Of a stretch of DNA of 64,000 nt, positions 4,055-52,887 are shown piece after piece. The stretch is from contig JAPLME010000008.1 in the NCBI GenBank assembly GCA_026387175.1, positions 13,091 to 77,090 on the forward strand, in the 5' to 3' direction. Position 1 is the first letter of the stretch. Each line of letters begins with the position of its first letter. Position numbers and translations under genes: made by a program. The notes beneath the pieces were generated by a model. It had not been told where the DNA came from. It saw nothing but the letters and a program-made list of their open reading frames with translations, and did not search any database. This DNA is from Candidatus Omnitrophota bacterium. Its GTDB lineage: Bacteria > Omnitrophota > Gorgyraeia > 2-01-FULL-45-10.

Positions 4055-5150
4055 ATGATAGAAGAGTTGAAAGAAGCCATCAAGACGATCGAAGAGAAGC
4101 TGAATAACCTAAGAGGTTATCTTTGACGTCGACCTTAAAGATAAGAGGATAAAAGAGCTCGAGGCCGAGATATCCGGCTCCGATTTTTGGAATGATGAGG
4201 CGCATGCCAAAGAAGTTATTAAGAATTTAAAGGACTTCAAATCTACAGCCGATCCCTTCCTTAAGATAGCAAATGAATTCAAAGACATAAAGGAGATCGT
4301 AAGCATCGCCGGGCCGGACGACCAGGAGTCTTTAAAACATTTCAGGGACGAGTTGACGAAGCTCTCCGGGAAGCTCGACCGCCTTGAGTTTAACAGCTGG
4401 CTTTCTGAGGATGCGGACAGAAATAATGCCATACTCAGCATAAATGCCGGAGCCGGCGGAACGGAATCCTGCGATTGGGCAGAGATGCTCCTCAGGATGT
4501 ATTATAAATGGGCTGAAGGAAAGGGTTACACGATAGATACGATAGATCAGATGCAGGGCGAAGAGGCGGGGATAAAGAGCGTAACCGTTATGATAAAAGG
4601 GGATTATGCTTTCGGCCTTTTGAAGTCGGAATCAGGTGTCCACCGCCTTGTCAGGATATCGCCGTTCGATTCGAACAAACGGCGGCATACCTCGTTCGCA
4701 TCGGTCGACGTAATTCCGGAGATATCGGACGATATCCAGATAGATATAAAAGAGCCGGATCTTAAAATAGACACATACAGGGCCGGCGGCAAGGGCGGAC
4801 AGCATGTAAACAAAACAGACTCTGCGGTCCGTATCACGCACATACCCAGCGGTATCGTTGTCCAATGCCAGAATGAAAGATCGCAGTTTAAAAATAAGCA
4901 GGTCTCCATGAAGATACTGAAGGCGAAATTATACGAAAGGGAGAGGCAGAAGAAAGTGAAGAAGATCGAGAGCGCCTACGAGGCAAAGAAGGAGATAGCG
5001 TGGGGAAGCCAGATACGGTCTTATGTGCTGCATCCTTATTCGATGGTTAAGGACCATAGGACGGATTGCGAGACGGGTAACGCGCAGGCCGTCTTGGACG
5101 GGAAGATAGATAATTTCATAGAAGCATACCTTAAGATGACGAAAAATTAG
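4055..5150 (+). CDS. prfB: Peptide chain release factor 2, with a programmed +1 ribosomal frameshift at the CTT TGA C site (4121-4127).
   Basis: A short frame-1 ORF (ATG 4055) ends at an in-frame TGA at 4124-4126 inside the canonical CTT-TGA-C shift site. An SD-like AGAGG lies just upstream. The downstream frame carries the RF2 core ([38 protein letters not shown]). Confidence 0.85.
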
Positions 5151-5158
5151 AGGCGAAA

Positions 5159-7909
5159 ATGGTAAATTTTATATTGAAGAAGATAATCGGCACACAGAAC
5201 GAGAGAGCGCTGAAGGACGTCAGGCCGGTCGTCGAACAGATAAACTCGCTGGAGAGCGCGGTCTCGGGATTATCCGATACTGATCTCCGCAATAAGACGG
5301 CCGAGTTTAAGATAAAGATAGCGGAGAAGTATAAAGACTTGAGAGAAGAGCTCGAGGAGATTGACGCCGCTTACAAGGCGGCGACATCACCGGGTGAGAA
5401 GGAGAAATTCAGGCGTAAGTACAGAGATGTTAAGAATGGCATATTCGAAGAGGTGCTACCCGAGGCCTTTGCGGTCGTGCGCGAGGCATCTAAAAGGACC
5501 GTCAAGATGCGCCATTTTGATGTGCAGCTGATGGGAGGCTTGGTCCTGCATCGGGGGAAGATTGCCGAAATGGCCACAGGAGAGGGAAAGACGCTTGTCG
5601 CGACGCTGCCTGTCTATCTGAACGCGCTTACGGGCGAAGGAGTGCATGTAGTCACGGTGAATGATTATCTGGCCAAGAGAGACCGTAACTGGATGGGGCC
5701 GATTTATGAATTTCTGGGCTTGAGCGTAGGGACCATACAGCATGATATGGACCAGCGTTCAAGAAAAGAGGCCTATGCCTGCGATGTGACATATGGAACG
5801 AACAACGAGTTCGGTTTCGATTATCTCAGGGATAATATGGTCATACATAAAGACGACATGGTTCAGCGCCCTTTAAATTACGCGATAGTGGACGAGGTTG
5901 ATTCTATACTCATAGATGAATCAAGGACTCCGCTCATCATATCGGGGCCGGCCGAAGAATCCACCGATAAGTATTATATAATCAACAAGATAGTGCCGAA
6001 ATTGAAAGGCAAGACGATAACCGACAAGGAAGAGATCGAGGCAAAACATAAAGGGCTCGATATAGAGAAGGGCATAGATTATGTGGTGAACGAAAAGAAC
6101 CATACGGTCAACCTTACCGAAGAGGGAGTGGTCCGCTGCCAGGATCTGATCGGCGTCAAGAACCTATATGAGGATATCCAGTCCGAGTGGGAACACCACA
6201 TAAGGCAGGCCATAAGGGCGCATGCGCTTTATGAGAAAGACGTCGATTATGTCGTGAAAGACGGCGAAGTTATGATCGTCGACGAGTTTACCGGGCGCCT
6301 TATGCCGGGGAGGAGATGGTCCGACGGCCTGCATCAGGCTGTTGAGGCTAAGGAGAACGTGAAGATAGAGAGGGAGAACCAGACCCTCGCCACGATAACA
6401 TTTCAAAATTATTTCAGGATGTACAAGAAGCTTGCCGGTATGACCGGTACTGCGGAGACCGAGGCCGTCGAGTTCGGAAGGATATACGGCCTTGACGTAG
6501 TGGTGATGCCGACCAACAGGCCGATGAAAAGGGCCAATCATCCCGATGTCATATATAAAACGGAGCGGGAGAAATTTAACGCGGTTTGCAATGAGATAGC
6601 CCAGCTTCATCAGGCCGGAAGGCCGGTCCTGGTCGGAACCATTTCGATCGAGAAGTCGGAGCACTTGAGCGGCTTGTTGAAGCGGATGAGCGTGCCGCAC
6701 CATGTGCTGAACGCGAAGTACCATGAGATGGAAGCCGAGATAATCGCGAAGGCCGGACAGAAATACAGCGTAACGATCGCGACCAACATGGCGGGCCGCG
6801 GCACGGATATTGTGCTGGGCGAATCGGTCGCGAACCTCGGCGGCCTTCATGTGCTCGGCACGGAACGGCACGAGGCTCGGCGCATCGATAATCAGCTGCG
6901 CGGCCGATCAGGCAGACAGGGCGATCCGGGCTCGAGCCGGTTCTACCTCTCATTGGAAGATGATCTTATGAGGATATTCGGCTCGGACAAGATAAAGGCG
7001 GTCATGGAGAGGATGGGGATGGAAGAGGGACAGGATATCCAGCATCCTTTCATAACGAAGGCCATTGAGACCGCCCAGAAGCGGGTCGAATCGCATAACT
7101 TTGAAATACGAAAACATCTTCTCGAATACGATAATGTGATGAATAAGCAGAGAGAGGTAATTTACGATGAGCGCCGCAAGGTGCTTTTCGGCGATGACCT
7201 TAAAGAATATATATACGAGATAATGGAAGAGGTCCTGGATGGCGCGCTCGAGACATATGTAAATGAGAAGATGAGCGCCGATAACTGGGATTTTGAGGGA
7301 TTTAGGCAATATCTGGATTCAAGATTCGCGCTTAAGACAGGAGGCCTGAATCTCGAAGAGATGAGAGTCCCGGAGATACGGGATGTTTTGCTGGAAAAGT
7401 TAAGAGCCTCTTACGAAGAGAAGGAGAAGGAGCTCGGTCCGGAGATGGCCAGATACCTCGAAAGGATGATATTGCTTCAAGTGGTCGATACGAGATGGAA
7501 GGACCATCTCTACGCCATGGATGCTTTGAGGGAAGGTATAGGCTTAAGGGCTTACGGCCAGCGAGATCCTTTGATAGAGTATCAGCATGAAGGCTACAAT
7601 ATGTTCATGGACATGATAAATCGTATTAAGGAAGAGGTGGTCGAATATCTTTTCAAAGTAAAAGCCGTAAAGGAAACAAAGAAGGAGTCTTCGGTGTTTG
7701 ACTTCTCGAAACAGCAGCTTATGCATGAAGAGAAGACTCAGTTCGCTGATTCACTGGCACAAGCTGATCCCGAAGCCGCCGCGAACTATTCAGGGCAGTT
7801 GCCGGAACAACACACCGTCCCTTTCAAGAGAGAAGAGCCTAAGGTCGGCAGAAACGATCCGTGCCCGTGCGGGAGCGGAAAGAAATACAAAAAATGCTGC
7901 GGAAGATAG
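5159..7909 (+). CDS. secA: Preprotein translocase ATPase SecA
   Basis: Full-length SecA with a DEAD-like motor ([10 protein letters not shown]) and the C-terminal Zn-finger [14 protein letters not shown]. Confidence 0.95.
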
Positions 7910-9447: not shown

Positions 9448-9544
9448 CGGCCCAGCCACCAGAATTACCCCCGTCGTTATTGCGATCCCGCCCGCAGTTT
9501 TCCTATAGGCGGGAGAAGCAATCTCAACAATGTTAGGCAGAAAA

Positions 9545-9590
9545 AAGATAGCTATCTTTCTATTAATTTAACATAAATATATGATATAAT
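9545..9590 (+). promoter_or_regulatory. Perfect 14-bp palindrome AAGATAGCTATCTT (9545-9558) followed by an extended -10 TGaTATAAT (9582-9590), directly upstream of the 1475-aa ORF.
   Basis: Read directly from the sequence. The ATG at 9601 is about 10 nt after the -10 and has no SD, which suggests a leaderless transcript or a start further downstream. Confidence 0.4.
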
Positions 9591-9600
9591 CTCTCTACAT

Positions 9601-12600
9601 ATGTTAATATCCAGGAAAGGCCATAGTTTTTTATATAGAGCTACAATATCAATTGTAGTCTCTATTTTTGTGATCAATGACTTAGCTTTCGGGAATCTCC
9701 TGCTTTCACAGGAGGCCAATAAATCTGTATTGGCCCCGCCCTTAGCTACAAAACTCCAGGGCGCTTTCCGTGATAGATGGGCGCTAATTGATATAGGTTA
9801 CATTATCGGTAGGATGCTGGTACTTGCCAGAGATCACAAACTCCAAAACCCAAAAAGCATTCTGATCCCTGTCATTAAGAGCCATATCCGCGATGGATCC
9901 GGTGAATCTGAAATGCTGCTCCAAGGATACGATATTGATGGCATAGAGGAGATTAGGGAGGATGGAGAGATAGTAGGCTTTGGCCTCCCCGTCACAGAGA
10001 ATGGTGTCATAATACATAAGCTTGTTTATAATCTGCAAAGCGGTGGCAACTTCTTAGAAATGAGTGATGGAACGAAAGTTTATGTGAGGACAGAAAAATA
10101 TACAACTGCTTTTGTAAAAAGGCTGATAGCCCATCCCGAAAGAAAACGTGAAATTCTTGCGGGTTTAACTGATGCTCAGAAAGAAGAGGTAATGCATAGA
10201 GCAGTTGAAGCATTACAATCTCAAATCAGGCAAGTTCCGAAAGTATATTTTGAAGATCACATTAAAAACTATGTTATACGGCTCAAGATACTTGCTATCC
10301 TGGGTATTTTAGACGGCATAGCTGTATATCCAATGATGGGGATAGATGTTTTCCCCGCCCAGTTTTGCCGGACCGTCGGTATAAATAGCGGGAATTACAT
10401 CGACTACATGTTTCATGAAATTGAAGTTACAAAGCCTGAAGTGTACAATGCCGCGGGAGTGGATCCCTCCATTATACGTAATTCTCTGATCTATGAAAAA
10501 GACGATATCCTCGATATAAATGGGATAATAAGCCATGTGAATAGAAATAGAATTTCCGGCGAGGACCATACGGCCTTGATCCTTAAGGGGGTCTCATGGC
10601 TGAAGAAATACGGATTTAATCCTAAATGGTCGCTTAATGCGGCAGAAACATGTAGGGAGTATTTGATTCCGCTGTGCGATAAACTGCTTAAGGCCGGCGA
10701 CCATATAGTGGCATTTAACGAAGATATGGAATACTGCGACTGGTTGATAAAAACCGGAGAGTATGAAGAGGTGGATTTAGGTATCGATAAAGATATTCTG
10801 ATGAGCCCTGATATGAAATCATTGGCGCAACCCGTTAATGACAAAGGTGAGCTATCCAGAGATGTATTTGAGGTAGGGGCTGATTTTATTGTTTTACGAA
10901 AGAAGCCGAAGATTTTGCCGCAACTCACATCAGGTAAAGGTGCGGCACTCTCGGAACATGTCGGCATAGAAGCTCCTCTGTTATCCGAAGACGGCAAGTC
11001 GGATGTAGGATCTACAGCTTTATCATTCGAAGATAAATCACAGGCAGAGTCATTTCCCGTCATAGAACGCGGACGCGTCAATAATATCGATTATAAAATA
11101 TGTTGGGCGAATCCAAAAGGCAAAGTATTCAGAGAAGACCGTAACCCCATACGTCAAAAACTCATAAAATTTTTAGAAGACCCAGGAAGAGTCGAGGCTG
11201 TCTTAAAAAATATAGGCAGTGACATAACATATAAAGAAATTGCCGTTGTAAATATTCAATATTTGAGAGCGTCTGAAAGAATAGTGTTCAGGATAAAATT
11301 ATCACTGATCGATGGGGTTACAAACCGCACAGGGTTTCATGTCAATAGGCCAATCTTCGAAATGGCTGTCAAAAGCGCAAGAACATCCAATATGAATCAA
11401 GCTGAAGTATTTAAGGGGCTCAAAGGGATGGGCTTCGCACCCGAGTTTGGTGAACTGTTTGATGACATTTACTATGAGGAATGGATAAAAGGCCCGACAG
11501 TCCACGCAGGCGCGAAAAATGGCCTGAACAGTGAAGAAATCCGAAAAATAACGGCTACATGGATGAAAGTCGTAAGATATCTGTCAAATGGTAACAGCTA
11601 TACTCAGTATCCTATAGATGTTAACCCGTCAAATATCATGTATAGGAACATAAGTAAAGAACCTGAATTTGTCGTTGTCGATATCCTTGAACGTAGACCC
11701 AAATATAATAACCCCGCGCTTTTTATACATAGCATAGTGAAATTTTATATCTATGGAAAGGGTTTCGGTATAAAATCTATAATCCCCAACGATATTAAGC
11801 CTATCTTAGAAGGTATATATGAGGGCCTTGGTTATGACAAAGCCAAGACGACAACTTTCCTTAAAGATGCCTTAAATCTTTGCGTGAATAAATTATACGA
11901 TCCTATGGTACGTTCTGCTATAGAAGAATTTCTCGTGAAACTAGAACTTGATAATACTCGTCCACCAACTGCTGCGTTTGCTGCCAATGGGGCATCTGTG
12001 CCTGATATGTTTATGAAAAAGTATATTTCGATTGTTAAAATATTCATGCATCTGGGGATCGTGCCGGTGGACTCCGTTGAGATAATGAAGACGGTTTATA
12101 GCCCGGGCGTGGGTGAAGTCTGCCGTCTCATTGAAAAGGACCCCTCCTTGGAAGAAGAATTATTCGGAGTGACACCTAAATCTTTTCCCGTCATTCATAA
12201 GGAGATTAGGAAGATCGTTATCTTTTCGGATGGTTCTGCTGTTTTAGGTATGGGGACAAAAGGGCCTCATGTTATGCGAGCTGTCTCAGAGGGCAAGAGG
12301 ATGCTCCTTAAGTGGTTCGGCGGAGTCGACGCGGACATAGCCTTTGTCGACACAAAGAAGCTGTGGAAACTATACAAAAAAGAAAGAGATCCCAAGAAAC
12401 GGGCATTCCTGGCTAAAAAGATTGAGGATAAAGTCTTTGGGTCCGTGAAAAGCTATGTAGAGCGCGTGAAGCAGAAGGAAGGGCTTAAAACAGTTGTCAT
12501 GCTAGAGGATATAGCCGCGCCTGTCTGCTTTAGCTTAGAGGAGCGTTTGAATGGTTCAGCGATCCCTACCATTCACGATGATCAGCATGGCACGGCCATT

Positions 12601-14028
12601 GTATTTGCGGGAGGGCTTTTACGCGCGGCAAGAGAGACTGGCAGAGAAAATAATATAGGTGCGATGAAAATTGTTATAGCTGGTGCGGGCTCAGCCGGGA
12701 TAGCGACAGCGAGACTATTACATCGTTTAGGATTTGGCATCGATTTAAAAAATGGCGGGAATATAATAATGTTGGATAGTAAAGGCGCCTTGCATTCAGG
12801 CAGGACGGACATAAACGGGGAGAAGTCAGAAATGGCGGCTCTTAATATTCAAGGATTTTCGGGGAATAATATGGAAGATATACTTAAAGGCGCCGATGCT
12901 TTTATAGGATTAGCCGAGCCGGGATATTTGTGGGGCAAGGAGAAGGTTTTTGAAGGCATGAATAAAGATAGCGTTGTTTTCCTTGGAGCGAATCCTAAGC
13001 CTGAAGCGGATCCTGCCGTGTTGAAAAATATGCCGAATATTAGGTTCATCGCCACGGGAGCATTTGGCTACCCCCAGGGAAGCACTTTTAATAACAGCTA
13101 TTCTTTCCCTGCGATCTTTCGGGCGCTTAGAGATGCTCCTCCTACATTGGAAAATTTTGATATCATGAAGATAGAAGAATCCGCGGCCTGGGCAATCTCG
13201 CGCCTTCCTCTTTCGCGGGATGACTTAATTGCCGGCCGGCTTTTGCCTCCGACATTCAGTGAAGGCAAATTTAATACCGCCGTATTTGCGAGTATTTTTC
13301 AAGAGGTCTCCCACGAAATCGGATCGAACGTCAACGTAGAAAGCGTTTTACGAAACATAGAGGGGCAGCACATGAGAGCATATGCGGCATTAACTGAAAG
13401 TGAGCGGGAAGCTTTAGCGATTACAGCGGCGCCCGCTCCTGCATCGCCTGAATCCGAAAGCATTCACTCCACAAACTTCCAAGATATCATTAACTACATC
13501 CAGGCACAACCACAAAGCCAGCCTCTTATAATAGCCCTAGGTACAGACTGGATGAGAGGATATGAGAAGGGAAAAACTCAGTACAATGCCCTTAACCCGC
13601 TTATAAGCTCGATACGTAACTACTGTGAATCAAAGGGTATACCGTTCATTGTCGACGAAGATAACAATCTGCCTGGCCGAATAAATACTGAAAAAACAAG
13701 AGACGGCAAGTCAAACGCGAAAGTAATCGTGTTAGCTGGAAAAGATACGGTCAAGTTGCCTGAATTTGCGCCACTGAGGGATGATAAGAACGTTGTAGTA
13801 GGAATTAGTAAGCAGGAGCCTGCAACCGACGAATATATATATATCCGACTGATGGAGATGTTAACACTTGCTCTAAAATTATCCGTAGGCATAGAAACCA
13901 TCCCCGATAATACTCCAATAAAGATTGTAAAAGACGATAAGCTCCATATATACATATTTATTCCTCCCGCCCAGCCAATGGATTACGAGAAACTTAAGGC
14001 TATCTACAGAGTCCAGGAGTTCGCGTAA
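9601..14028 (+). CDS. Giant 1475-aa protein: N-terminal signal-anchor helix, about 800 aa of unknown function, an apparently intact NAD(P)-malic-enzyme domain (about nt 12050-13260), and an unknown C-terminal region of about 255 aa.
   Basis: Single uninterrupted ORF. Malic-enzyme motifs are present in order (YSPGV, DGSAVLGMG, SEGK, LEDIAAPVCF, HDDQHGTAIV, AGAGSAGIA, LDSKGAL, GANPKPE, FPAIFRALRD). The N- and C-terminal regions are not recognisable. Local GC is visibly lower than the flanks. Confidence 0.7.
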   Translation: MLISRKGHSFLYRATISIVVSIFVINDLAFGNLLLSQEANKSVLAPPLATKLQGAFRDRWALIDIGYIIGRMLVLARDHKLQNPKSILIPVIKSHIRDGSGESEMLLQGYDIDGIEEIREDGEIVGFGLPVTENGVIIHKLVYNLQSGGNFLEMSDGTKVYVRTEKYTTAFVKRLIAHPERKREILAGLTDAQKEEVMHRAVEALQSQIRQVPKVYFEDHIKNYVIRLKILAILGILDGIAVYPMMGIDVFPAQFCRTVGINSGNYIDYMFHEIEVTKPEVYNAAGVDPSIIRNSLIYEKDDILDINGIISHVNRNRISGEDHTALILKGVSWLKKYGFNPKWSLNAAETCREYLIPLCDKLLKAGDHIVAFNEDMEYCDWLIKTGEYEEVDLGIDKDILMSPDMKSLAQPVNDKGELSRDVFEVGADFIVLRKKPKILPQLTSGKGAALSEHVGIEAPLLSEDGKSDVGSTALSFEDKSQAESFPVIERGRVNNIDYKICWANPKGKVFREDRNPIRQKLIKFLEDPGRVEAVLKNIGSDITYKEIAVVNIQYLRASERIVFRIKLSLIDGVTNRTGFHVNRPIFEMAVKSARTSNMNQAEVFKGLKGMGFAPEFGELFDDIYYEEWIKGPTVHAGAKNGLNSEEIRKITATWMKVVRYLSNGNSYTQYPIDVNPSNIMYRNISKEPEFVVVDILERRPKYNNPALFIHSIVKFYIYGKGFGIKSIIPNDIKPILEGIYEGLGYDKAKTTTFLKDALNLCVNKLYDPMVRSAIEEFLVKLELDNTRPPTAAFAANGASVPDMFMKKYISIVKIFMHLGIVPVDSVEIMKTVYSPGVGEVCRLIEKDPSLEEELFGVTPKSFPVIHKEIRKIVIFSDGSAVLGMGTKGPHVMRAVSEGKRMLLKWFGGVDADIAFVDTKKLWKLYKKERDPKKRAFLAKKIEDKVFGSVKSYVERVKQKEGLKTVVMLEDIAAPVCFSLEERLNGSAIPTIHDDQHGTAIVFAGGLLRAARETGRENNIGAMKIVIAGAGSAGIATARLLHRLGFGIDLKNGGNIIMLDSKGALHSGRTDINGEKSEMAALNIQGFSGNNMEDILKGADAFIGLAEPGYLWGKEKVFEGMNKDSVVFLGANPKPEADPAVLKNMPNIRFIATGAFGYPQGSTFNNSYSFPAIFRALRDAPPTLENFDIMKIEESAAWAISRLPLSRDDLIAGRLLPPTFSEGKFNTAVFASIFQEVSHEIGSNVNVESVLRNIEGQHMRAYAALTESEREALAITAAPAPASPESESIHSTNFQDIINYIQAQPQSQPLIIALGTDWMRGYEKGKTQYNALNPLISSIRNYCESKGIPFIVDEDNNLPGRINTEKTRDGKSNAKVIVLAGKDTVKLPEFAPLRDDKNVVVGISKQEPATDEYIYIRLMEMLTLALKLSVGIETIPDNTPIKIVKDDKLHIYIFIPPAQPMDYEKLKAIYRVQEFA

Positions 14029-14071
14029 TCGTTTCGACATTTGTAGATAGTTCATGGTATATTGATAAAAC

Positions 14072-15514
14072 ATGGGTATCCCATCAAATAAAAAGAAGCT
14101 CCTGATAGGCTTCGTTCTTATCTCCGCTATATTTCTCTTCCTAAGGCTTAAAACATTAGGCCATCTCCTGATGTGGGACGAGGCATGGAATATCCTTTCA
14201 TTGAGAGCGTTCCTGAGTAACGCTAAAGCGGATCCTTTCTACTGGGGATATTTTTTCCACCCTCCTTTTTACATGACTTTCGCGCGGTTCTTCGCGCCGT
14301 TTCAAGCGGGATTCGATATAAGGCTGGAGTCGCTTTCCTTAGTATTTTCATATGCGACGTTATTAGTCACCTATCTATTGAGCGCAAGGATAGGGGGATG
14401 GAAATACGCATGGATGAGCGGGCTCTTATTGAGCCTGATGCCCGCGTCAATAGGCTATGACACATGGATAAAGAGGGACGGCCTGGCATCGGTGTTATGC
14501 TACCTTGCCATTTTACTATTATTAAAGAGAAAATTCTTCTGGTGCGCCATAGCGCTTTCCTTCGCTTTATTAAGTAAGGAGAGCGCGCTATTTTTTATCG
14601 TTGCCGTCGTGCCGATATTGTTTCTATTGAAAGAGAGGATCACTATAAAAAAGATTACGGTAATGTGCGCGACGATATTTATCCTTACATCATGGTGGTA
14701 TATATTATTTAGCTCTCTCACCAAAACAGTTTTTAAAATTTATTTTCAAGCAACAGATTATTATACATTGTGGGCAAATTCCCCTATATATTATTTCAAG
14801 AAATTACTGCCGGACCTGGGAGCGGCAATGCTTCTCTTTTTCATAATAGGAGCATTCTATATTTTATATCTGATATTCCATAATAAGCAATTCAGGTGGG
14901 GCATACCGCTCATCATTGTAGCGGCCGTATACATTCCAAGCTCTTTCTTCATCACGGCTAAGGCCCCGTGGCTATGTTTATCCGCCCGCCCGGCTCTGGC
15001 AATGGCCGCCGGCGCAGGGATGCTGCTCTTAATAAAGATGACGAAAAGATCGAGATTAATTTTAGCGATCCTGATCCTATCTTTTATGTACACTCTTTAT
15101 ACCGGACTGGCCTTCTCATATCCGCAATATCATATGGAAACGCATCCGAACGGTTGGCCGGGAGCAGACGCCTCGAAAAAGCTTGCCTGCTACCTCAATG
15201 AACATATGAAGGACGACGATAGATTGATGATCACGGAATTTGCTTATTGGAGCATGCCTGTCTGCGCAGTATTCTTATATTATTGGAAAGGATGCCCGAT
15301 AGAGATAATAAAAGGGGAGCAGAAGGCCGAGAATGTAATAAAAGAGATAGCTATGAATAAAATATCATGGTTTGTGATAGCCGACTCACCTCATCCAACT
15401 CTCAATTTTCATCCGCTGGTAAAAGATGCAAGCAATTCAGTATTGGGAAAACCCGTTCCAGTCGGCTGGTCATATGTCTGGAATACAAAGAAATTATGGT
15501 CAAGTGATAAGTAG
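14072..15514 (+). CDS. Polytopic GT-C-fold glycosyltransferase-like membrane protein (PMT/ArnT-like, family 39/83-type)
   Basis: At least ten predicted TM helices. A DE motif sits in the first extracytoplasmic loop (MWDEAWN). The overall hydropathy layout matches GT-C enzymes. It lies 43 bp after the giant ORF. Confidence 0.5.
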   Translation: MGIPSNKKKLLIGFVLISAIFLFLRLKTLGHLLMWDEAWNILSLRAFLSNAKADPFYWGYFFHPPFYMTFARFFAPFQAGFDIRLESLSLVFSYATLLVTYLLSARIGGWKYAWMSGLLLSLMPASIGYDTWIKRDGLASVLCYLAILLLLKRKFFWCAIALSFALLSKESALFFIVAVVPILFLLKERITIKKITVMCATIFILTSWWYILFSSLTKTVFKIYFQATDYYTLWANSPIYYFKKLLPDLGAAMLLFFIIGAFYILYLIFHNKQFRWGIPLIIVAAVYIPSSFFITAKAPWLCLSARPALAMAAGAGMLLLIKMTKRSRLILAILILSFMYTLYTGLAFSYPQYHMETHPNGWPGADASKKLACYLNEHMKDDDRLMITEFAYWSMPVCAVFLYYWKGCPIEIIKGEQKAENVIKEIAMNKISWFVIADSPHPTLNFHPLVKDASNSVLGKPVPVGWSYVWNTKKLWSSDK

Positions 15515-19274: not shown

Positions 19275-22200
19275 TTGGCGGATACCGATAATAAAGATTC
19301 AGGGCCTTTAAACGAATATCTGGTAGATGGCAAATATTCGATAAAGGACCTTGTCGACATTAAAGGGCTGCGCCCTATATTCGAAATGCTGTCTGAATTG
19401 ACCGGAGTCGCGATAGGGCTTAACTCATATCCGGATGAGGAGATCCTGGTAGCTACGGCATGGTCGGATATCTGCACAAAATTCCATAGAGCCAACCCCG
19501 AATCGGCCAAGGCCTGCCTTAAGAGCAATTTGGCTTTGAGCGGTAAACTGAAAAAAGCCGGCGACATTAACATCGAGTATTGCGATAACGGGTTGGTGGA
19601 CGGCGGGACGCCTATAATAGTTAAAGACAAGCATATCGCGACGCTTTTCGCGGGGCAGGTCTTTTTTCATAAGCCCGATATTGAAAAATTCAAAGAGCAG
19701 GCCCGAGTTTTCGGATACGATACTGAGAGATACCTGGAAGCCGTTAATAAAGTAAGTGTTATTACGAGCGAGAGATTCAAGTCAGTCCTTTCATTGCTTG
19801 GCAGGATAGCCTCATTAATCGCGGAGTTGGGCTATAACAACCTGGAAGTCAAGAACAGAAATCTGGGGCTTCGGGATGATGTGCTCTACCGCGAGAAGGC
19901 CGAAGCCAGGATAATACATCTTAACTCCATCCTTAGAGCAATCAGCAGCGTATCCCAGCTTATGATAAAAGAAAAGGACAGGAGCGCACTTCTCGCAAAA
20001 ACTTGCCGTATATTGGTCGATAGCAGGAATTACCGTCTGGCATGGATAGGGTTGATCGAAAATGGGACGTTTGAGATAAAGCCTGCTGCTTGCGCGGGCT
20101 TTGATGATGGATATCTTGAAAGTATTCATGTCACCTGGGATGATTCACCGAACGGCCAGGGTCCTACAGGTATAACCGTAAAGACAAGAAAACCGTCTAT
20201 AGCAAACGATATTGCCACCGATCCAAGTTTCGCGAACTGGCGGGGTGAGGCGATAAGACGCGGTTATCGTGCTATGGTCTCAGTGCCCGTAGTCATGGAG
20301 GAGCGTATTTACGGTGTCATAAATGTATATTCCGATCACCCTAATGCCTTTGACGAACAGGAGGTCAGCCTGCTTGCCGAATTGGCCGGAGATCTGGGAT
20401 TTGCTTTATACACCGCGGAGATCGAATCAGAGAGGCGGGAATCTGAAAAGGCCCTGGTTGTGTCGGAGGAGAGTTATCGTTCCATATTCGATTCGGCAAA
20501 TGACGCGATCTTCATCCAAGACATAGAAACGGGCCGAATAATAGACGTCAACCAGAAGGCCTGCCAGATGTATTTGTACAGTGAGAATGAGATGCTGCAC
20601 CGCAGCATAGGAGACTTGAGCCTTGGCGAGAGCCCGTATACACAGGAAGACATGATCAATGTAATAAATAAGACTTCCAGCGGAGAGCCGCAGCTGTTTG
20701 AATGGGTCGCGAAAGACAGGGCCGAGAGGCTCTTCTGGGTGGAGATCAATCTGAAACGGGCCGTAATAAACGGAAAATACCAGATACTGGCGATTGTGCG
20801 CGATATCACCGATCGTAAAAATACGGAAGAGAGATGGGAGAAGATACACGAGACATTCCTGAGCTTCGGGCCCGACCCTTCTGAAAACATTAACAAGCTT
20901 ACCGCCTTGTGCGGAGAGATCATGGGCGCCGACTGTGCCATGTATAACAGGCTCGAGGGCGAAACATTGCATTCATGCGGACAATGGAACGTGCCGCCCG
21001 GGTTTCAGGAGATGGATATGGCTCAGGGCCATATCTGTTACGATGTTATTAAGAAAGGCTCCGATGATATAACCGTTATAAGCAATCTTCAGGAGAGCGG
21101 GTATGCCGAGACCGATCCCAACGTTAGAAGCTACAATCTCCATACATATGTCGGGCAGGCCGTAAAAGTCGGCGGCGAATATATCGGCACATTATGCGTG
21201 GTATACCAGCAGGATATCGAGCCTTCGGATGAAGACAAAGAGATAATGGGCTTCATCGCGCACGCCATAAGCGTCGAAGAGGAGCGCAAGAGCTCGGAAG
21301 AGATAAACCAGATGGCGCAGTTCGCGATCGAGCGTTCCGGCAGCTCTGTATTCTGGATAGGTCCGGATGCCCGGATCCTGCATGTCAATGATATGGCGTG
21401 CACATCCTTAGGATATTCACGCGAAGAGTTATTGGCCATGACCGTATCCGATATAGATCCGAGTTATTCCGGAGATGTCTGGCCGCGGCATTGGAAAGAG
21501 ATCAAAGATCGCGGTTCCTTCCTTATTGAGACGCAGCATCGCCGGAAAGATGGCACTACATTTCTGGTGGAGGTCTCTGTCAATTATCTTGAGTTCCAGG
21601 GCAACGAATATAATTTCGCGTCCGCCCGGGATATAACAGAACGAAAGGCCCAGGAGGAAGAGCTGGTCAGGCGCGACTATCAGCTCGAGATCCTTTCGCG
21701 CACCAGCCAGCATATTAACGCGATCCTGGAAGTGCCGACGATATTGAGAACGCTGATAGCCGCGGCTATAGAGCTTGTCGATGCCACCGCCGGAACGGCG
21801 GGAGTGGTGGTGGGCGATAATGTGGTATTCAAAGAATACCACAAGGATGGCAAAATTTATTCTGTCGATTATACATTTAAGCCCGGCGAGGGCCTGTGCG
21901 GATGCATAACAAAGTCGTTGAGGACGTATATCTCCAATGACGTTGAACATGATCCCAGCGTGCTTCCTGAATTTAAGGAGATGCTCGGGCTGCATAACCT
22001 GATCAGCATACCGATATTGAACAGGGAAGGAAAACTGCTCGGATGCCTGGAGCTATATAACAAGAAGGATGCCAGGCAGTTCGATGCCCAGGATGTCTTT
22101 ATGCTTCAAGGCATGGCGGCTGGAGCGGCCGTAGCGCTCGAGAACGCCAATATGCTCGTGCAGCGTAATAAGAGCCAGGAAGAGCTCGCGTGGCAAAAGA

Positions 22201-23846
22201 TGTTTTATGAGAATCTTCTGAACGAAGCGAATATATGGATAGAGGTTGTGGATAAGGAAGGGAAGACCCTGCTGTGGAATAAAAAAGCTGAGGAGATCAC
22301 CGGTTTTAAAAGAGAAGAGATCATAGGTAATCTGAAAAAATGGGAGCTGGAATATCCGGATCCGAAGCAGAGGGGCAGGCTTATTAATTTTGTAAAAAAG
22401 TTAATACCCTCAGGTAAAAATATAAAAGATCTCGAGACCGAGATAGCGACGTTGGTGAACGGTACGAAGACGATGTCATGGTCTTCCACGATAATCTGCG
22501 ACAGCTATGGCAAGATAATAGGCAGCATGTTTCTCGGTAACGATGTTACGGAACGCAAGGCTATCGAGAAGGAAAGGGAATCCCTCAATAAAGAGCTTAC
22601 CAAGACTAACAAGAGATTGAGCCAGCTTGCCCTGAAAGACTTCGAGACAGGACTGCATAATCACCACTATCTGATGGAAGCGATAGAGCCGGAACTCTAT
22701 CGGGCCAAGCGTTACGTCCATCCGCTATCGGTGGTAATGATAGATATCGATTATTTCAGGTCCATCAACGACCTTTATGGCCACGAATTCGGCGACATGG
22801 TATTGAAGCAGTTTGCGACTCAGCTGAAAAAGATGGTGCGCCGCTATGACATAGTGGTGCGTTTCGGGGGAGAAGAGTTTATAATACTCTCTTCCGGCGC
22901 GGACAGGACAAGGGCCATTGCCCTCGCGCACAGGCTCATGGAAGCGTTATCCATCTACAATTTCGGCGACGACAAACATTCCGTGAAGATCAGGATGAGT
23001 ATGGCGGTGGCATCATATCCGGATGACCCGATCGAGAACGGGATGGATCTCGTGCATCTTGCCGAGAAGCTGCTGGACAAGGCGAAGGAGGCCGGCGGGA
23101 ACAAAGTATTTTCTTCGATAGACACTAAGAACGGCAAAAAACACGTACCTGTCGAAAGCGAGCCGACCGATATCCAGTATCTCAAAAAGAAGATATCGAG
23201 CCTTACGAAACGCGGAAGGCAGAGCCTGATGGAGTCTATCTTCGCTTTTGCCAAGACTATCGAGATGAGGGACCATTATACGGGCGAGCACGCTGATTCC
23301 ACCGTCCACTACGCGACCCAGATAGCGAGGGCATTGAAGCTCGAACAGGAAGAGATAGACCATGTGAGGCAGGCTGCAATATTGCATGACCTGGGCAAGG
23401 TTGGCATAAGCGACAAGATCCTGCTGAAGAGATCCAAGCTCACCAAAAAAGAATTTGATGAGATTAAAAAACATCCGCAGATCGCGGCTGATATAATAAG
23501 GCCGATACAGTTTATGAAAGATATAATACCGCTCATTCTTTATCATCATGAAAAATGGAACGGTACCGGTTACCCTATGGGTATAAAGGGCCAGTCGATC
23601 CCCGTGGGCGCAAGAATAATATCGATAGCGGACGTTTACCAGGCGTTGACTTCGGACAGGCCTTATAGAAAAGCTTTCTCGAAGAAAGAGGCGATGAAGA
23701 TATTAAAAGAGAACGTGGGGATACAATTCGATCCGAAGATAGTCAGGATATTTCTCAATATATTAAAAGGGGAAAAAGACAGGCGTCGTCCTGCGGTACC
23801 CGCAGGCAATGAACATGAGCATGAGAGGGCAAAGGGAAAGGTATGA
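19275..23846 (+). CDS. 1523-aa multi-sensor c-di-GMP signalling protein with a Cys-containing N-terminal sensor region (possibly PocR-like), several PAS and GAF domains, a GGDEF domain (GGEEF intact) and an HD-GYP domain.
   Basis: RFGGEEF lies at about nt 22860. The HD-GYP signature HDLGKVG...HHEKWNGTGYP lies at about nt 23385-23590. PAS-like repeats are followed by TERK/DITERK linkers. Confidence 0.85.
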   Translation: MADTDNKDSGPLNEYLVDGKYSIKDLVDIKGLRPIFEMLSELTGVAIGLNSYPDEEILVATAWSDICTKFHRANPESAKACLKSNLALSGKLKKAGDINIEYCDNGLVDGGTPIIVKDKHIATLFAGQVFFHKPDIEKFKEQARVFGYDTERYLEAVNKVSVITSERFKSVLSLLGRIASLIAELGYNNLEVKNRNLGLRDDVLYREKAEARIIHLNSILRAISSVSQLMIKEKDRSALLAKTCRILVDSRNYRLAWIGLIENGTFEIKPAACAGFDDGYLESIHVTWDDSPNGQGPTGITVKTRKPSIANDIATDPSFANWRGEAIRRGYRAMVSVPVVMEERIYGVINVYSDHPNAFDEQEVSLLAELAGDLGFALYTAEIESERRESEKALVVSEESYRSIFDSANDAIFIQDIETGRIIDVNQKACQMYLYSENEMLHRSIGDLSLGESPYTQEDMINVINKTSSGEPQLFEWVAKDRAERLFWVEINLKRAVINGKYQILAIVRDITDRKNTEERWEKIHETFLSFGPDPSENINKLTALCGEIMGADCAMYNRLEGETLHSCGQWNVPPGFQEMDMAQGHICYDVIKKGSDDITVISNLQESGYAETDPNVRSYNLHTYVGQAVKVGGEYIGTLCVVYQQDIEPSDEDKEIMGFIAHAISVEEERKSSEEINQMAQFAIERSGSSVFWIGPDARILHVNDMACTSLGYSREELLAMTVSDIDPSYSGDVWPRHWKEIKDRGSFLIETQHRRKDGTTFLVEVSVNYLEFQGNEYNFASARDITERKAQEEELVRRDYQLEILSRTSQHINAILEVPTILRTLIAAAIELVDATAGTAGVVVGDNVVFKEYHKDGKIYSVDYTFKPGEGLCGCITKSLRTYISNDVEHDPSVLPEFKEMLGLHNLISIPILNREGKLLGCLELYNKKDARQFDAQDVFMLQGMAAGAAVALENANMLVQRNKSQEELAWQKMFYENLLNEANIWIEVVDKEGKTLLWNKKAEEITGFKREEIIGNLKKWELEYPDPKQRGRLINFVKKLIPSGKNIKDLETEIATLVNGTKTMSWSSTIICDSYGKIIGSMFLGNDVTERKAIEKERESLNKELTKTNKRLSQLALKDFETGLHNHHYLMEAIEPELYRAKRYVHPLSVVMIDIDYFRSINDLYGHEFGDMVLKQFATQLKKMVRRYDIVVRFGGEEFIILSSGADRTRAIALAHRLMEALSIYNFGDDKHSVKIRMSMAVASYPDDPIENGMDLVHLAEKLLDKAKEAGGNKVFSSIDTKNGKKHVPVESEPTDIQYLKKKISSLTKRGRQSLMESIFAFAKTIEMRDHYTGEHADSTVHYATQIARALKLEQEEIDHVRQAAILHDLGKVGISDKILLKRSKLTKKEFDEIKKHPQIAADIIRPIQFMKDIIPLILYHHEKWNGTGYPMGIKGQSIPVGARIISIADVYQALTSDRPYRKAFSKKEAMKILKENVGIQFDPKIVRIFLNILKGEKDRRRPAVPAGNEHEHERAKGKV

Positions 23847-44547: not shown

Positions 44548-47500
44548 ATGTTAAGCGCTAAAAAAGATAGCTATGCTTCTATTGACTTAACCACTCCATA
44601 TGCTATACTGAATACTATGTATATCTTCAAAATGCAGTATAGTATTCTATTTAGAGCTATAGCGCTATTTGTCGCATGTTTATTCCTGGCCAATGATATA
44701 AGTTGGGCTGTTCCTTCCAGTTATTCAAATTATTTAGAAACTACTACCACTCTTGCCGTAGAATCCAGGCTCAAACCTTTCTTCGAAAAACACGGTTTAG
44801 ATTTCCAGAATATGTTTAGCGTATATTGTGTAACTGCTGAACTGCGAAACCTGATCATGAAGAGAGAAGTAAGAGATAGCGATATTGTAAGGCTGAACAG
44901 GAATTTACCCCAAGATGAAATCCAGATAGAAAGAGAAACCGTAAAATCCAAATTCATTAAAGCCGCTTCCTTTGAGTCTACCGGAAAAGATTACAAATAC
45001 GCTATCCTCAATTTTAAAAAATCCGGAAAGCGGATTAAAATGGCATTTGTCGACAGTAAACTCGAAAGCAGTGAGCGATTAGAGCTCGGGATCAAAACCG
45101 AAAATGATATAGATCATTTTTCTAGTCCAGGCCTTGAGGGAGTCTGGTTTATTAATATTAAGCCTTCATCGAACTTCGGTTCTGGAAATGCAGCGCAGAC
45201 CATTTATGAAATGCTATCTTCTTACGGTGATAAAGAAGACATTCTGTCTGATCATGGCAAGAGGGTGCTTGCCTGTATACGAGACGGCTCTGTTTCATCT
45301 GATATTCTAGGTTTTGATATCAATAAGCTTCGCGGCTCAACGTTGCCGCAGGCCATCGAGCAGTTGGTCTTGCCGGTGGAACATGGTGGCTTAAATAACG
45401 GCAAAAACTCTTTCTTCATATCGCCCGAAGAATATCTTGAAAAGAACCCACAATGGGCGTCTTCAAGATTTTCAATCTTCCCCAAATCGATTCGATTGGT
45501 AAAAGGTTGTAATAATGATTGCCTCTTTTGCCTGGCTGAGGGACGTAGATCTGTTCAGTCTCTACCTTACCCGATTGCCGCACAGCGCATTCTACGAACA
45601 CATTTTAAAAGGGATGGTATGAGAGGTCGAGCAAGAGCTGTAGCCTATTACCACGGAGATGAGGATATTTTTCACTATATCGATAAAATATGCGGCGCCA
45701 ATATAGCTGACCTGATCTCCTTTGAGCAAAAATTCCCGAGTCCAGTCCGATTTTATACCGAAATGTACACGGCGGGATATTCTCCGTTCGACCCTTCGAT
45801 GGCGTATGTTAAAGATGCGATCGGACAATTACGGGGACAGAAGATCAATGAAAGAACGTACAGAATCTTTATCACATATCATCTATTCAGGCCTGAAATC
45901 GAAGAAGCGATTCTGCAAAAGGACAAAGGTAAGTTAATAAGGGCCGTGAGGGCGTATATGCGGATGTATAAAGAACTTTTTCTTTGCCAGCCCGGCCTGG
46001 AAGTATTGAATAGATCGGCTCTCGAAGAAGATGCGAACTCTTCAAGGGTCATAAAGACGATCGCCGCGATACAGGCTCAGGTGCTGAAGCATCTGAAGAA
46101 TGAAGATGAGACTAAAGAAGCATCTCCGGTATTCTATGATAGATGTATTAATTGGACGCGAGGCCATAAAGCGAAATCCGAGTTTGAGCGCCTGCGTAAA
46201 GCCGAATCCGAAGATCCTGAACTGACCGCCTTTTTAGATAGTTTGGTTATCGAAGAAATTGTGGCAGGATGGGGCGCCCCGCCGAACGCCGGCCCTGAAA
46301 GCCCAGCACAGAAAGGTATGTCCACACACGACACGCCCTCTATAGATACTGGTAAGCTTATTGAGGCAAACGAAGCGTTATCAAGAGTTGAAAATTACCT
46401 CAGATCCGATAAAATTGTTATTTTTGGGGATATGCATCGCGGAGAACTAAAGCCACAGGATGATGAAGTTTGGGATCGCGAACTTTTTCTCGATTATGTT
46501 GAACAGATGGGAAAGCTCTCGATGAATTTTTCGGTTGCGCTGGAGTTACCTTATCAACTCGAAGATAAACTTAACGATCCTTCCGTTTCAGTAGAAGAAT
46601 TTCTGGATGAATACTATAAACTTATAGCTAATGAATATTCTGATGAAATTACCAGAATAAATAGCGAAATACGAGGACCTTACTTATATCGGTTGTTAAC
46701 TGCTCTGAAACACTTCAAGATACCCGTTATTCTTATTGGTGACATTAATGGCCAGCTCAATGGCGGGTTTACAACCATAGATAGAATAGAACAATCCAAT
46801 GAAGATATGACGCGGAAACTTTTGGAAGGACGAAAGAAATATTCGAATGATTCTGTCTTAGTGATGGTAGGGAGAAACCATGTGGTGCCAAAGGTTAATC
46901 CTATCTGGCTCGGTGGGCGTGAGATAAATTCCATACCAGAAATGTTACGAGAGTCTGCAACCAATGTTAAATTAATCCGACCCGATGATATTCAACATGA
47001 CGAAGAGGATTTGGCGAAATTTGACCTGGTCATAAAAGTCGATGGGGAGCGCCAAAATGAATACCTGGCAAGGCAGAAAGACATGTCTATGCGTGATGCA
47101 TCTCCTATAGATAGAAACGGGCTCAGCTCTTTACTTTTTACGCGAAACCGAGATGGCGAGATATTTTTGAATATACCGGTTTTTGAAAAGATCGTTAATA
47201 GCGTTCATTCCAGCCGGGTTTTGGGTAGCGCGCGGTATTTATCTGATCTTGAGGGGTTTGTCCCGTTATCAAAATGTAAGAACGACATAGATATAATGCT
47301 ATTTAATCAGATTGGCGCAAAAGATAAGAGCGCGATAATAGCCAAACTTGTTACGGAACTTGAAAAATATGGAATTGTGAAGATAGGACAAAATGGGGAA
47401 TCCGTCACCGTAAGATTTCCCGGTTCCGAAGAGAACGCGGTCCTTCACATAACGGATCAATGGAATCTTAATACCATCATATACGATATTGTAAGATACC

Positions 47501-52836: not shown

Positions 52837-52887
52837 AGAGTCCCCTTATTGCTTTTCGTATAGAGTTAGCATATAATTGTATCTATT

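Follow-up and report, generated by a model that had tools for sequence, protein, structure and literature searches.

Bacterial malic enzymes (ME) have been described in two canonical architectures, a stand-alone enzyme of ∼400 aa and the ∼760-aa MaeB, in which an N-terminal ME domain is joined to a phosphotransacetylase (PTA) domain; the known malic enzymes are cytoplasmic or organellar. In the phylum Omnitrophota, giant multi-enzyme proteins of 30–147 kaa (thousand amino acids), named 'Archaeovorins', have been reported to contain many transmembrane helices and SecA-like, C39 and S8 domains (West-Roberts et al. 2023, 10.1101/2023.11.21.568195), and long Omnitrophota proteins have been catalogued in a 2026 preprint (10.64898/2026.06.07.730766). 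Here we analysed 64,000 nucleotides of a Candidatus Omnitrophota bacterium (assembly GCA_026387175.1, contig JAPLME010000008.1, positions 13,091 to 77,090 of the forward strand), hereafter called the window and numbered from its first letter. One gene of the window (9601..14028, + strand) encodes a 1475-aa protein in which an ME domain without PTA is embedded at residues 816–1265 behind a leader, so that it fits neither canonical architecture. Sequence comparison showed that the protein is built of a Sec-like signal peptide, a LAPPLATK motif, a module N1, a payload of three modules (N2, N3 and ME), an Ala/Pro/Ser linker and a module C. N1, N2, N3 and C have no entry in Pfam-A (2025 copy) or NCBIfam 20.0, and N1 and C define a large protein family, of which they form the ends ('bookends') around a variable middle.

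The gene was present exactly as a first-pass annotation of the window had claimed, with an ATG start and 1475 codons plus stop in a single uninterrupted frame. A database protein ('hypothetical protein NTY76_04480, Candidatus Omnitrophica bacterium', NCBI) was found to be 100% identical, and was annotated 43 codons shorter. The same first-pass annotation had recognised the hallmarks of malic enzyme in the middle of the protein. Consistent with this, the Pfam search returned PF00390 (residues 826–983, 64.8 bits versus a gathering cut-off of 23.1) and PF03949 (residues 997–1114, 29.5 bits versus 23.5, profile positions 3–126 of 258), both mid-protein; no other Pfam domain, and in particular no PTA domain, was detected in the 1475 aa. 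The whole NAD-binding domain was covered by alignments to PDB sequences, the closest of which were the small prokaryotic malic enzymes 5cee (E 2e-44) and 6zn4 (the ME domain of Bdellovibrio MaeB, E 5e-43). These enzymes resemble the window protein in both Pfam domains, which occur in the same order, and in the catalytic, metal and NAD(P) motifs: VYSPGV (Tyr), EGK (Lys), LEDI (Glu/Asp), HDDQHGT (Asp), GAGSAG, ANPxPE and NNxxxFP were conserved in the alignments. The stretch before LEDI was longer than in 5cee and 6zn4, by ∼20 residues as estimated by eye. Judged from these alignments, the ME payload (12046..13395, +) can be assigned to the malic-enzyme superfamily with the catalytic Tyr and Lys, the Glu/Asp/Asp metal ligands and GAGSAG intact. 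In NCBIfam, only ME-type models were matched and all scored far under their family cut-offs (NF009501, 121 bits versus 1178); NF041582 was matched weakly (E 7.6e-5). The activity might conceivably be that of a malolactic or oxaloacetate-decarboxylase variant instead of a malic enzyme.

The regions flanking the ME domain had been said to resemble neither PTA nor anything else recognised at first reading. Searches bore this out, as N1, N2, N3 and C gave no Pfam or NCBIfam match even at E ≤ 10 and the N-terminal 815 aa had no sequence match in the PDB. The flanks were nevertheless less obscure than the earlier label 'unknown' implied, because they resolved into four recurrent modules, two of which mark a family of at least 633 protein clusters. 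In searches with the full protein, homologues other than itself matched its two ends only, at residues ∼52–169 with 60–63% identity and at residues ∼1283–1475 with 63–64% identity; one further homologue pair matched residues 162–438. The first end corresponds to the N1 'head' domain (9754..10110, +; residues 52–170), which was 60–63% identical over residues 52–169 to P0002 and P0004, and the second to the C 'tail' domain (13447..14025, +; residues 1283–1475, 193 residues), which was 63–74% identical to P0002–P0005 and P0008. A segment of ∼35 residues beginning 'PPCEIV...', carried by most members, was absent from the window protein.

A word-index search with the C domain alone retrieved three fragments only, and an exhaustive profile search was needed to reveal the extent of the family. 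With a 7-sequence profile against 1.84 billion representative proteins, C matched 633 protein clusters at E ≤ 1e-3, 400 at 1e-10 and 134 at 1e-30, in proteins of ∼200 to 6,923 aa. It is unlikely that these matches are low-complexity or compositional artefacts, because the domain has a confidently modelled fold and a mean column identity of 35% across 38 diverse C-domain sequences. The position of C was strikingly constant: in 148 of 148 proteins the complete domain lay ≤8 residues from the C-terminus, with the family consensus [KR]-x-[IL]-Y-x-[VLA]-Q-x-[FS]-A-COOH; the window protein ends in YRVQEFA. In local iterative searches, 99 of the 157 sequences analysed also carried a leader or N1, and 85 had both a complete N1 and a complete C. 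The gap between N1 and C ranged from 18 residues in P0057, an 'empty' protein of 373 aa, to 5,278 residues in P0036; in all others it was at least 165.

P0057 is the shortest member and consists of signal peptide, N1 and C alone. It was modelled with AlphaFold2 on an alignment of 42 full-length relatives (predicted local distance difference test, pLDDT, of 86.9; predicted template modelling score, pTM, of 0.79). The model showed a hydrophobic helix at residues 7–28, followed by residues 30–53 of low confidence (pLDDT < 50), which contain the motif L-S-P-P-L-L-T-K-P. N1 was modelled as three helices and a five-stranded antiparallel sheet, and C was modelled confidently as a Rossmann-like, 3-layer alpha/beta fold with a terminal helix. 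The model suggests that N1 and C pack as one unit. No solved homologue was found for the modelled N1/C scaffold. The conserved polar residues of C were located where its strands end C-terminally, a placement also found in Rossmann-like domains with ligand-binding or catalytic roles. A disulfide bond between the Cys of 'TKPPC' and a Cys conserved in the C domain of 121 of 144 sequences was also considered, and was rejected because the two did not co-occur (Fisher p = 1.0).

The N-terminus of the window protein had been read as a signal anchor. It is indeed hydrophobic (Kyte-Doolittle peak at residues 10–28), but its profile looks like that of a cleavable Sec signal peptide, oriented N-in, rather than a membrane anchor. 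The putative signal peptide (9601..9693, +; residues 1–31) comprises an n-region with R5, K6 and R13, a hydrophobic core of 12 residues and the c-region NDLAFG; it reads MLISRKGHSFLYR-ATISIVVSIFVI-NDLAFG, with A-F-G at positions −3 to −1. In 61 full-length members, the net charge of the n-region was +3 in the median and positive in 60, the hydrophobic run had a median of 12 residues, and the 15 residues after it had a median charge of −1. By eye, AXA-like sites (SYA, AFA, AFG, SFA) followed many of the cores. It is this combination of positive n-region, 12-residue core, negative charge behind it and AXA-like sites that points to a cleavable Sec signal peptide; a twin-arginine motif was absent. 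Approximately 10 residues beyond the AXA-like site, members carried the sequence (S/T/A)-L-A-P-P-L-A-T-K-P-P-C, and in the window protein the corresponding short linear motif LAPPLATK (9730..9753, +; residues 44–51) is situated in the linker after the signal peptide. A second hydrophobic stretch of the window protein, at residues 224–242, was read as buried, not transmembrane. Outside the N1/C family, signal-peptide-like N-termini together with a related short motif (S-x-L-R-V-P-[LI]; A-L-R-P-I-A-T) were observed in P0158, P0159 and P0007, and the motif may therefore represent a broader sorting or processing signal of Omnitrophota.

Between the bookends, the window protein carries two modules in addition to ME. 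N2 (10111..10920, +; residues 171–440) was shared at 27–47% identity with P0006, P0007, P0087 and P0128. The sequences VYPxxGxDxF, LLKxGDHIV and FIVLxKK gave the impression of a methyltransferase, to which a profile search of PDB sequences added no significant match. N3 (10921..12045, +; residues 441–815) was shared with P0029, P0157 and the stand-alone N3 proteins P0158 and P0159, both of ∼388 aa; in P0029 (leader-N1-N3-C, 729 aa) it is the sole payload. An alignment of four sequences showed an invariant Lys in 'AxK', YYEEWIxG, D-x-[HN]-x-x-N-I and VVD (K113, D195...N200, VVD216), a pattern that reads like a small protein-kinase-like fold; kinases of the RIO/Kdo/APH type are recognised by a beta3 Lys, a hinge hhE-h-h-x-G, a catalytic D-x-x-x-x-N and a metal-binding Asp. 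The N3 profile matched nothing in PDB, Pfam or NCBIfam.

The payloads of the other members were diverse. Pfam analysis of 43 members found HATPase_c in 14, and furthermore S-adenosylmethionine (SAM) methyltransferases, GNAT, HAD, low-molecular-weight phosphatase, ARMT1-like, epimerase, radical SAM, AIRS and sigma-70 region 4 domains; larger members also carried PPDK_N and a weak Pkinase match. The middles of the homologues of the window protein held HATPase_c, a radical SAM with a B12-binding domain, or PCC with radical SAM, and the CX3CX2C motif of P0004 was intact.

Two contigs from other metagenomes allowed the ME-containing architecture to be compared independently. One, L023 (from a different Joint Genome Institute metagenome), holds the 3′ 1.39 kb of an ortholog, comprising ME from GAGSAG onwards, the linker and C. 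Downstream of it, after an intergenic spacer that is almost unchanged, comes the gene for the 480-aa membrane protein, as in the window. The proteins were 82% identical, and the ratios of nonsynonymous to synonymous substitution (dN/dS, Nei-Gojobori) were 0.09 for ME and 0.20 for C: the gene is under purifying selection. The Ala/Pro/Ser-rich linker to the C-terminal region, AITAAPAPASPESES (13396..13446, +; residues 1266–1282), which had been noted at first sight and was found, had only 47% identity to the ortholog in contrast to 83% for the flanking domains, and is thus evolutionarily unconstrained. The other contig, L024, encodes a leader, the degenerate motif STLATPSEF and N1 (profile E 9e-18), to which ME is joined directly; this ME was 56% identical to that of the window and had a similarly long segment before LEDI. 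In L024, an open reading frame (ORF) that was labelled prolyl-tRNA-synthetase-like by sequence reading only is located upstream. ME is thus a recurrent payload of the family, and N2 and N3 are extra payload in the lineage of the window.

All 15 of 15 loci on one-genome-per-species contigs came from metagenome-assembled genomes (MAGs) of Omnitrophota or from MAGs labelled 'uncultured Planctomycetia', with ≤3 family copies per MAG. No paralogs were found in the window by tblastn with all five modules. A phage or other mobile origin was considered and rejected, as no relatives were found in the viral contigs of IMG/VR. At some loci, traces of rearrangement were observed. In L004 (also in L005), a 102-aa ORF at 7516–7824 encodes a C domain with an internal deletion ('...GKQGAKV|YEVRKFA'), ∼2 kb upstream of full-length P0004 and separated from it by an AAA_14/DUF4143 gene. 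This remnant is a decayed cassette and suggests recombination or turnover at these loci. In L001 (12837–16000), a MerR-like gene, a large serine recombinase (Resolvase/Recombinase/Zn_ribbon_recom) and a GIY-YIG gene come after the HATPase_c-bearing P0003; an integrative element may thus contain or adjoin this copy.

The start and upstream region of the ME gene had the features that the first-pass annotation had pointed out. A 16-nt perfect palindrome, AAAGATAG/CTATCTTT (9544..9559, +), is present in the AT-rich region and is a possible operator. An extended −10-like element, TGATATAAT (9582..9590, +), ends 10 nt before the ATG at 9601; it has no −35 element and hence was not called by the consensus promoter scan. 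When the upstream regions of 27 window genes were compared, a Shine-Dalgarno (SD) sequence was absent before ATG 9601, and most of the other genes had AGGAG or GGAGG. The position of TGATATAAT and the absence of an SD sequence together suggest that the mRNA may be leaderless or nearly so. Two further genes without SD sequence, that of the 480-aa membrane protein (upstream region 14050–14071) and a TatD/radical-SAM gene (upstream region 52868–52887), have a −10-like TATATT or TATAAT ∼8–11 nt before ATG; this genome may thus make repeated use of leaderless-type starts.

The start chosen by NCBI is a TTG at codon 44 (9730), with AGGAGG in frame 13 nt upstream (window 9711–9732), and it would remove the conserved signal peptide. 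It is possibly a mis-called start or that of a second, leader-less isoform. Since the leader aligns from residue 1 with P0005 and other relatives, the start at 9601 is favoured. As also claimed earlier, the gene is AT-richer than its neighbours: its GC content was 0.430 and its GC content at third codon positions (GC3) 0.426, compared with a GC3 of 0.50–0.64 (mostly 0.54–0.64) in the other long ORFs of the window, with the sole exception of a 2762-aa ORF at 44548 (0.406).

This 2762-aa ORF (44548–52836, +) contains ARMT1-like and radical-SAM domains and is otherwise dark to Pfam. Its residues 24–80 ('...ILFRAIALFVACLFLANDISWA...') matched the leader profile of the family (E 4e-12), and it was the only other carrier of the leader in the window. 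A C domain at its tail, which ends in ...IKTAA, was looked for and was not supported (hhalign probability 0.3%, hmmsearch E 0.04). The ORF probably encodes another multi-enzyme protein with a leader, belonging to a related class.

Immediately downstream of the ME gene, a polytopic membrane protein of 480 aa is encoded (14072..15514, +), with at least seven hydrophobic segments and an acidic motif, 'WDEAW', after the first. It had been called a GT-C-type glycosyltransferase. Its polytopic membrane character was verified, but the GT-C label was not: no Pfam match was obtained even at E ≤ 5, and the NCBIfam model NF046093 ('cell surface glycopolymer formation') was matched below threshold (E 9e-5, 21.8 bits versus a cut-off of 150). 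A GT-C-like glycopolymer or glycosylation enzyme is a plausible guess. GT-C protein mannosyltransferases glycosylate exported proteins, and by analogy the 480-aa protein could glycosylate the Ser/Pro-rich linker of the ME-bearing protein if that is exported.

The neighbourhood is otherwise one of housekeeping genes, with MurJ, UvrC, release factor 2, SecA and Lnt upstream and ComM, LysS, ClpC, CysS and MetG downstream. The gene for release factor 2 is split: in the ORF at 4353–5150, the Pfam domain PCRF is matched from profile position 75 only, and CTT TGA C, a canonical programmed +1 frameshift site, is found upstream at 4121–4127. At 19275–23846 (+), a 1523-aa protein with PocR, GAF, several PAS, GGDEF and HD-GYP-type (HD_5) domains was observed, a large sensor of cyclic di-GMP turnover. 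The 456-aa ORF at 52888–54258 (+) fuses a complete TatD-type DNase (residues 3–253) to a radical-SAM domain (residues 273–441), which is an unusual combination.

We propose that the window protein is an exported carrier, with N1 and C as its handle and with swappable enzymes as its cargo, a reading that we regard as about evenly balanced between right and wrong. Export from the cytoplasm would be due to the Sec-type leader. N1 and C together would be a common two-part handle that is recognised only when both ends of the chain exist and have folded, and would serve onward secretion, anchoring or delivery, and the payload inserted between N1 and C would be the cargo, working outside the cytoplasm of the producer. 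Because the cargoes need ATP, SAM, acetyl-CoA, NAD(P) or Fe-S clusters, they would most coherently act in the cytoplasm of a host or prey cell or in a sealed zone of contact with such a cell, in keeping with the host-dependent or predatory way of life that has been proposed for Omnitrophota. There, the ME cargo would turn host malate (or oxaloacetate) into pyruvate and CO2. The protein would be related to the giant multi-enzyme proteins of Omnitrophota, as a small and modular form. In a bolder form of the proposal, which we hold only tentatively and consider improbable, N1+C would be the handle of a phylum-specific delivery route by which ultrasmall, host-dependent Omnitrophota pass ordinary cofactor-dependent enzymes (malic enzyme, kinases, methyltransferases, radical-SAM enzymes and HK-type ATPases) into host or prey cells and so rewire the metabolism of the host, and the giants of 30–147 kaa would be concatenated cargo. 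As a sub-variant, an exported ME of malolactic or oxaloacetate-decarboxylase type, with tightly bound NAD, might conceivably work without external cofactor turnover.

Several points weigh against an exported carrier. Export was deduced from sequence rules of charge and hydrophobicity only, and the packing of N1 with C is supported by the pTM alone. C may, given the placement of its conserved polar residues, be an enzyme or a binding module rather than a sorting handle. An all-versus-all comparison of ORFs from the loci found neither a secretion-system gene nor any other conserved partner beside members at independent loci, and the ME gene of the window is placed among housekeeping genes. A second isoform, without the leader, might start at TTG 9730. 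Enzymes that depend on NAD(P), ATP, SAM or Fe-S clusters are not expected to work in the periplasm or extracellularly, and Sec export of a radical-SAM protein such as P0004, with its CX3CX2C motif intact, would be awkward. By this cofactor paradox, the proteins could equally stay on the cytoplasmic side.

For this reason, namely that the cofactor argument cuts both ways, the serious rival is a membrane-tethered scaffold, although we think it unlikely on balance. The N-terminus would then remain uncleaved and the bulk of the protein would stay in the cytoplasm of the producer, or a soluble form would be made from codon 44, and N1+C would be an oligomerisation or docking unit that brings different enzymes, here ME and the kinase-like module, together in a membrane-proximal metabolon. 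Such a scaffold would accommodate payload domains that all need cytoplasmic cofactors, the lack of adjacent secretion genes, and the possible SD sequence (AGGAGG) before the codon-44 TTG that NCBI chose as start; the 2026 preprint (10.64898/2026.06.07.730766) likewise interprets many of the long Omnitrophota proteins as anchored in the membrane, their enzyme content being cytoplasmic. However, the charge pattern, positive before the core in 60 of 61 members and negative after it, predicts an N-in/C-out topology, opposite to that needed. A stable transmembrane helix would need more than the median core of 12 residues, AXA-like sites often come after the core, and the conservation of the leader from residue 1 throughout the family means that it is no annotation accident. 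It is also conceivable, but rather doubtful, that N1 and C polymerise or enter a surface layer or fibre in the manner of flagellin, so that the middle is displayed and the LAPPLATKP motif docks on the neighbouring subunit. Some flagellins carry enzymes in their variable region, as in flagellinolysin. Conserved termini around a hypervariable insert of 18 to >5,000 aa, with an 'empty' member of 373 aa, would be expected of such a protein; so would a motif in a low-confidence, probably flexible linker as an inter-subunit contact, and a conserved crevice on C could receive it. Yet no coiled-coil or beta-solenoid polymer fold was seen, C is an ordinary globular alpha/beta domain, and the cofactor paradox would persist for ME, radical SAM enzymes and kinases on a cell surface.

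The remaining explanations deny the architecture a function or an existence. A recently acquired or decaying gene of a low-GC island, with ME captured by chance and the layout as recombination noise, would agree with the GC3 of 0.43 against 0.54–0.64 for most neighbours, with the occurrence of members in unrelated contexts, some by serine recombinase, Abi_2 or AAA_14/DUF4143 genes, and with the internally deleted C domain in L004. It has a slim chance at best, as dN/dS was 0.09–0.20 between orthologs that have kept synteny with the downstream gene, the catalytic residues of ME were all intact, and an ME payload recurred at 56% identity in a differently built member; the low GC3 of the other long leader-bearing ORF in the window suggests a property of the gene class over a single transfer. 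Least probable by far is an artefact in which a frameshift, a mis-assembly or a wrong start joined a malic enzyme of ∼400 aa to neighbouring ORFs. The sequence is MAG-derived and the NCBI start differs from that of the longest ORF, and the first-pass annotation had itself named separate, frameshifted ORFs and an internal start before ME as the ways in which its claim could fail. But the 1475 codons are uninterrupted, the ME-linker-C junction recurs in L023 and the N1-ME junction in L024, the N1...C layout is found within single ORFs in dozens of relatives, and Met803, 805, 816 and 829 have no clear SD motif upstream. From these repeated junctions and the internal Met codons, frameshift, chimera and internal start were rejected.

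If the exported-carrier proposal is right, it suggests that tiny, host-dependent Omnitrophota export ordinary enzymes of cytoplasmic type. ME, radical-SAM, ATP- and SAM-dependent enzymes that follow Sec signal peptides are at odds with what is usually expected of where such enzymes work, and resolving this contradiction would reveal either a new form of host manipulation or a new membrane organisation of cytoplasmic enzymes. N1 and C are abundant modules, and N2 and N3 are rarer. With at least 633 clusters, sizes of 0.4–7 kaa and one to few payloads, the family offers a tractable entry to the Omnitrophota giants of 30–147 kaa, which resist expression and modelling; its two short, foldable terminal domains are in a size range that suits heterologous expression, topology mapping and structure work. 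C is always last and ends in Y-x-x-Q-x-F-A, a regularity that usually marks a sorting or assembly signal. No paper describing the N1/C modules was found in the searchable literature under Omnitrophota/Omnitrophica with malic enzyme, giant proteins, effectors or signal peptides, and term searches of both Omnitrophota preprints found no mention of the N1/C bookends, the LAPPLATKP motif or an ME payload.

Among secreted proteins with a comparable layout, the type V autotransporters and the cargo of the type IX secretion system are alike in having a Sec signal peptide, a variable passenger and a conserved domain at the extreme C-terminus, the last few residues of which are conserved too. In type V autotransporters, this domain is a 12-stranded beta-barrel translocator, whereas the C domain of the window protein is modelled as an alpha/beta Rossmann-like fold of ∼190 aa. 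The C-terminal domain (CTD) of type IX cargo is an immunoglobulin-like beta-sandwich of ∼80–100 aa (PMC11285876), from which C differs in fold and size, and no CTD model of Pfam or NCBIfam was matched. The bookended family departs from both groups in its second conserved domain at the N-terminus and in its passengers, which are cofactor-dependent enzymes, not adhesins or hydrolases. Flagellins resemble the family in conserved ends modelled as packing together, in a central insert of almost nothing to thousands of residues, and in the enzymes found among the inserts. There is, however, no relation in sequence or fold, the leader of the family is of Sec type where flagellins have a type III export signal, and no sign of polymerisation was seen. 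Polymorphic toxin and effector families of predatory and competitive bacteria also combine a constant trafficking part with swappable enzymes, scattered paralogs and cassette remnants. In contrast to them, the variable part of the bookended proteins is internal instead of C-terminal, no immunity genes and no Rhs, PAAR or MIX-type markers were seen, and the payload enzymes have metabolic or regulatory roles, where those families carry nucleases, deaminases or pore-formers.

The likeness to the Omnitrophota giants was closer. They belong to the same phylum, have N-terminal signal peptides, carry strings of divergent cytoplasmic-type enzymes amid Pfam-dark sequence and pose the same paradox of localisation, and their domain lists overlap with the payloads found here in HATPase_c, radical SAM, methyltransferases, GNAT, HAD and PPDK_N. 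The window protein differs from them in its length of 1.5 kaa and in having neither internal transmembrane helices nor SecA-like, C39 or S8 domains. The long and giant multi-enzyme proteins of Omnitrophota are the nearest biological relatives of the bookended family.

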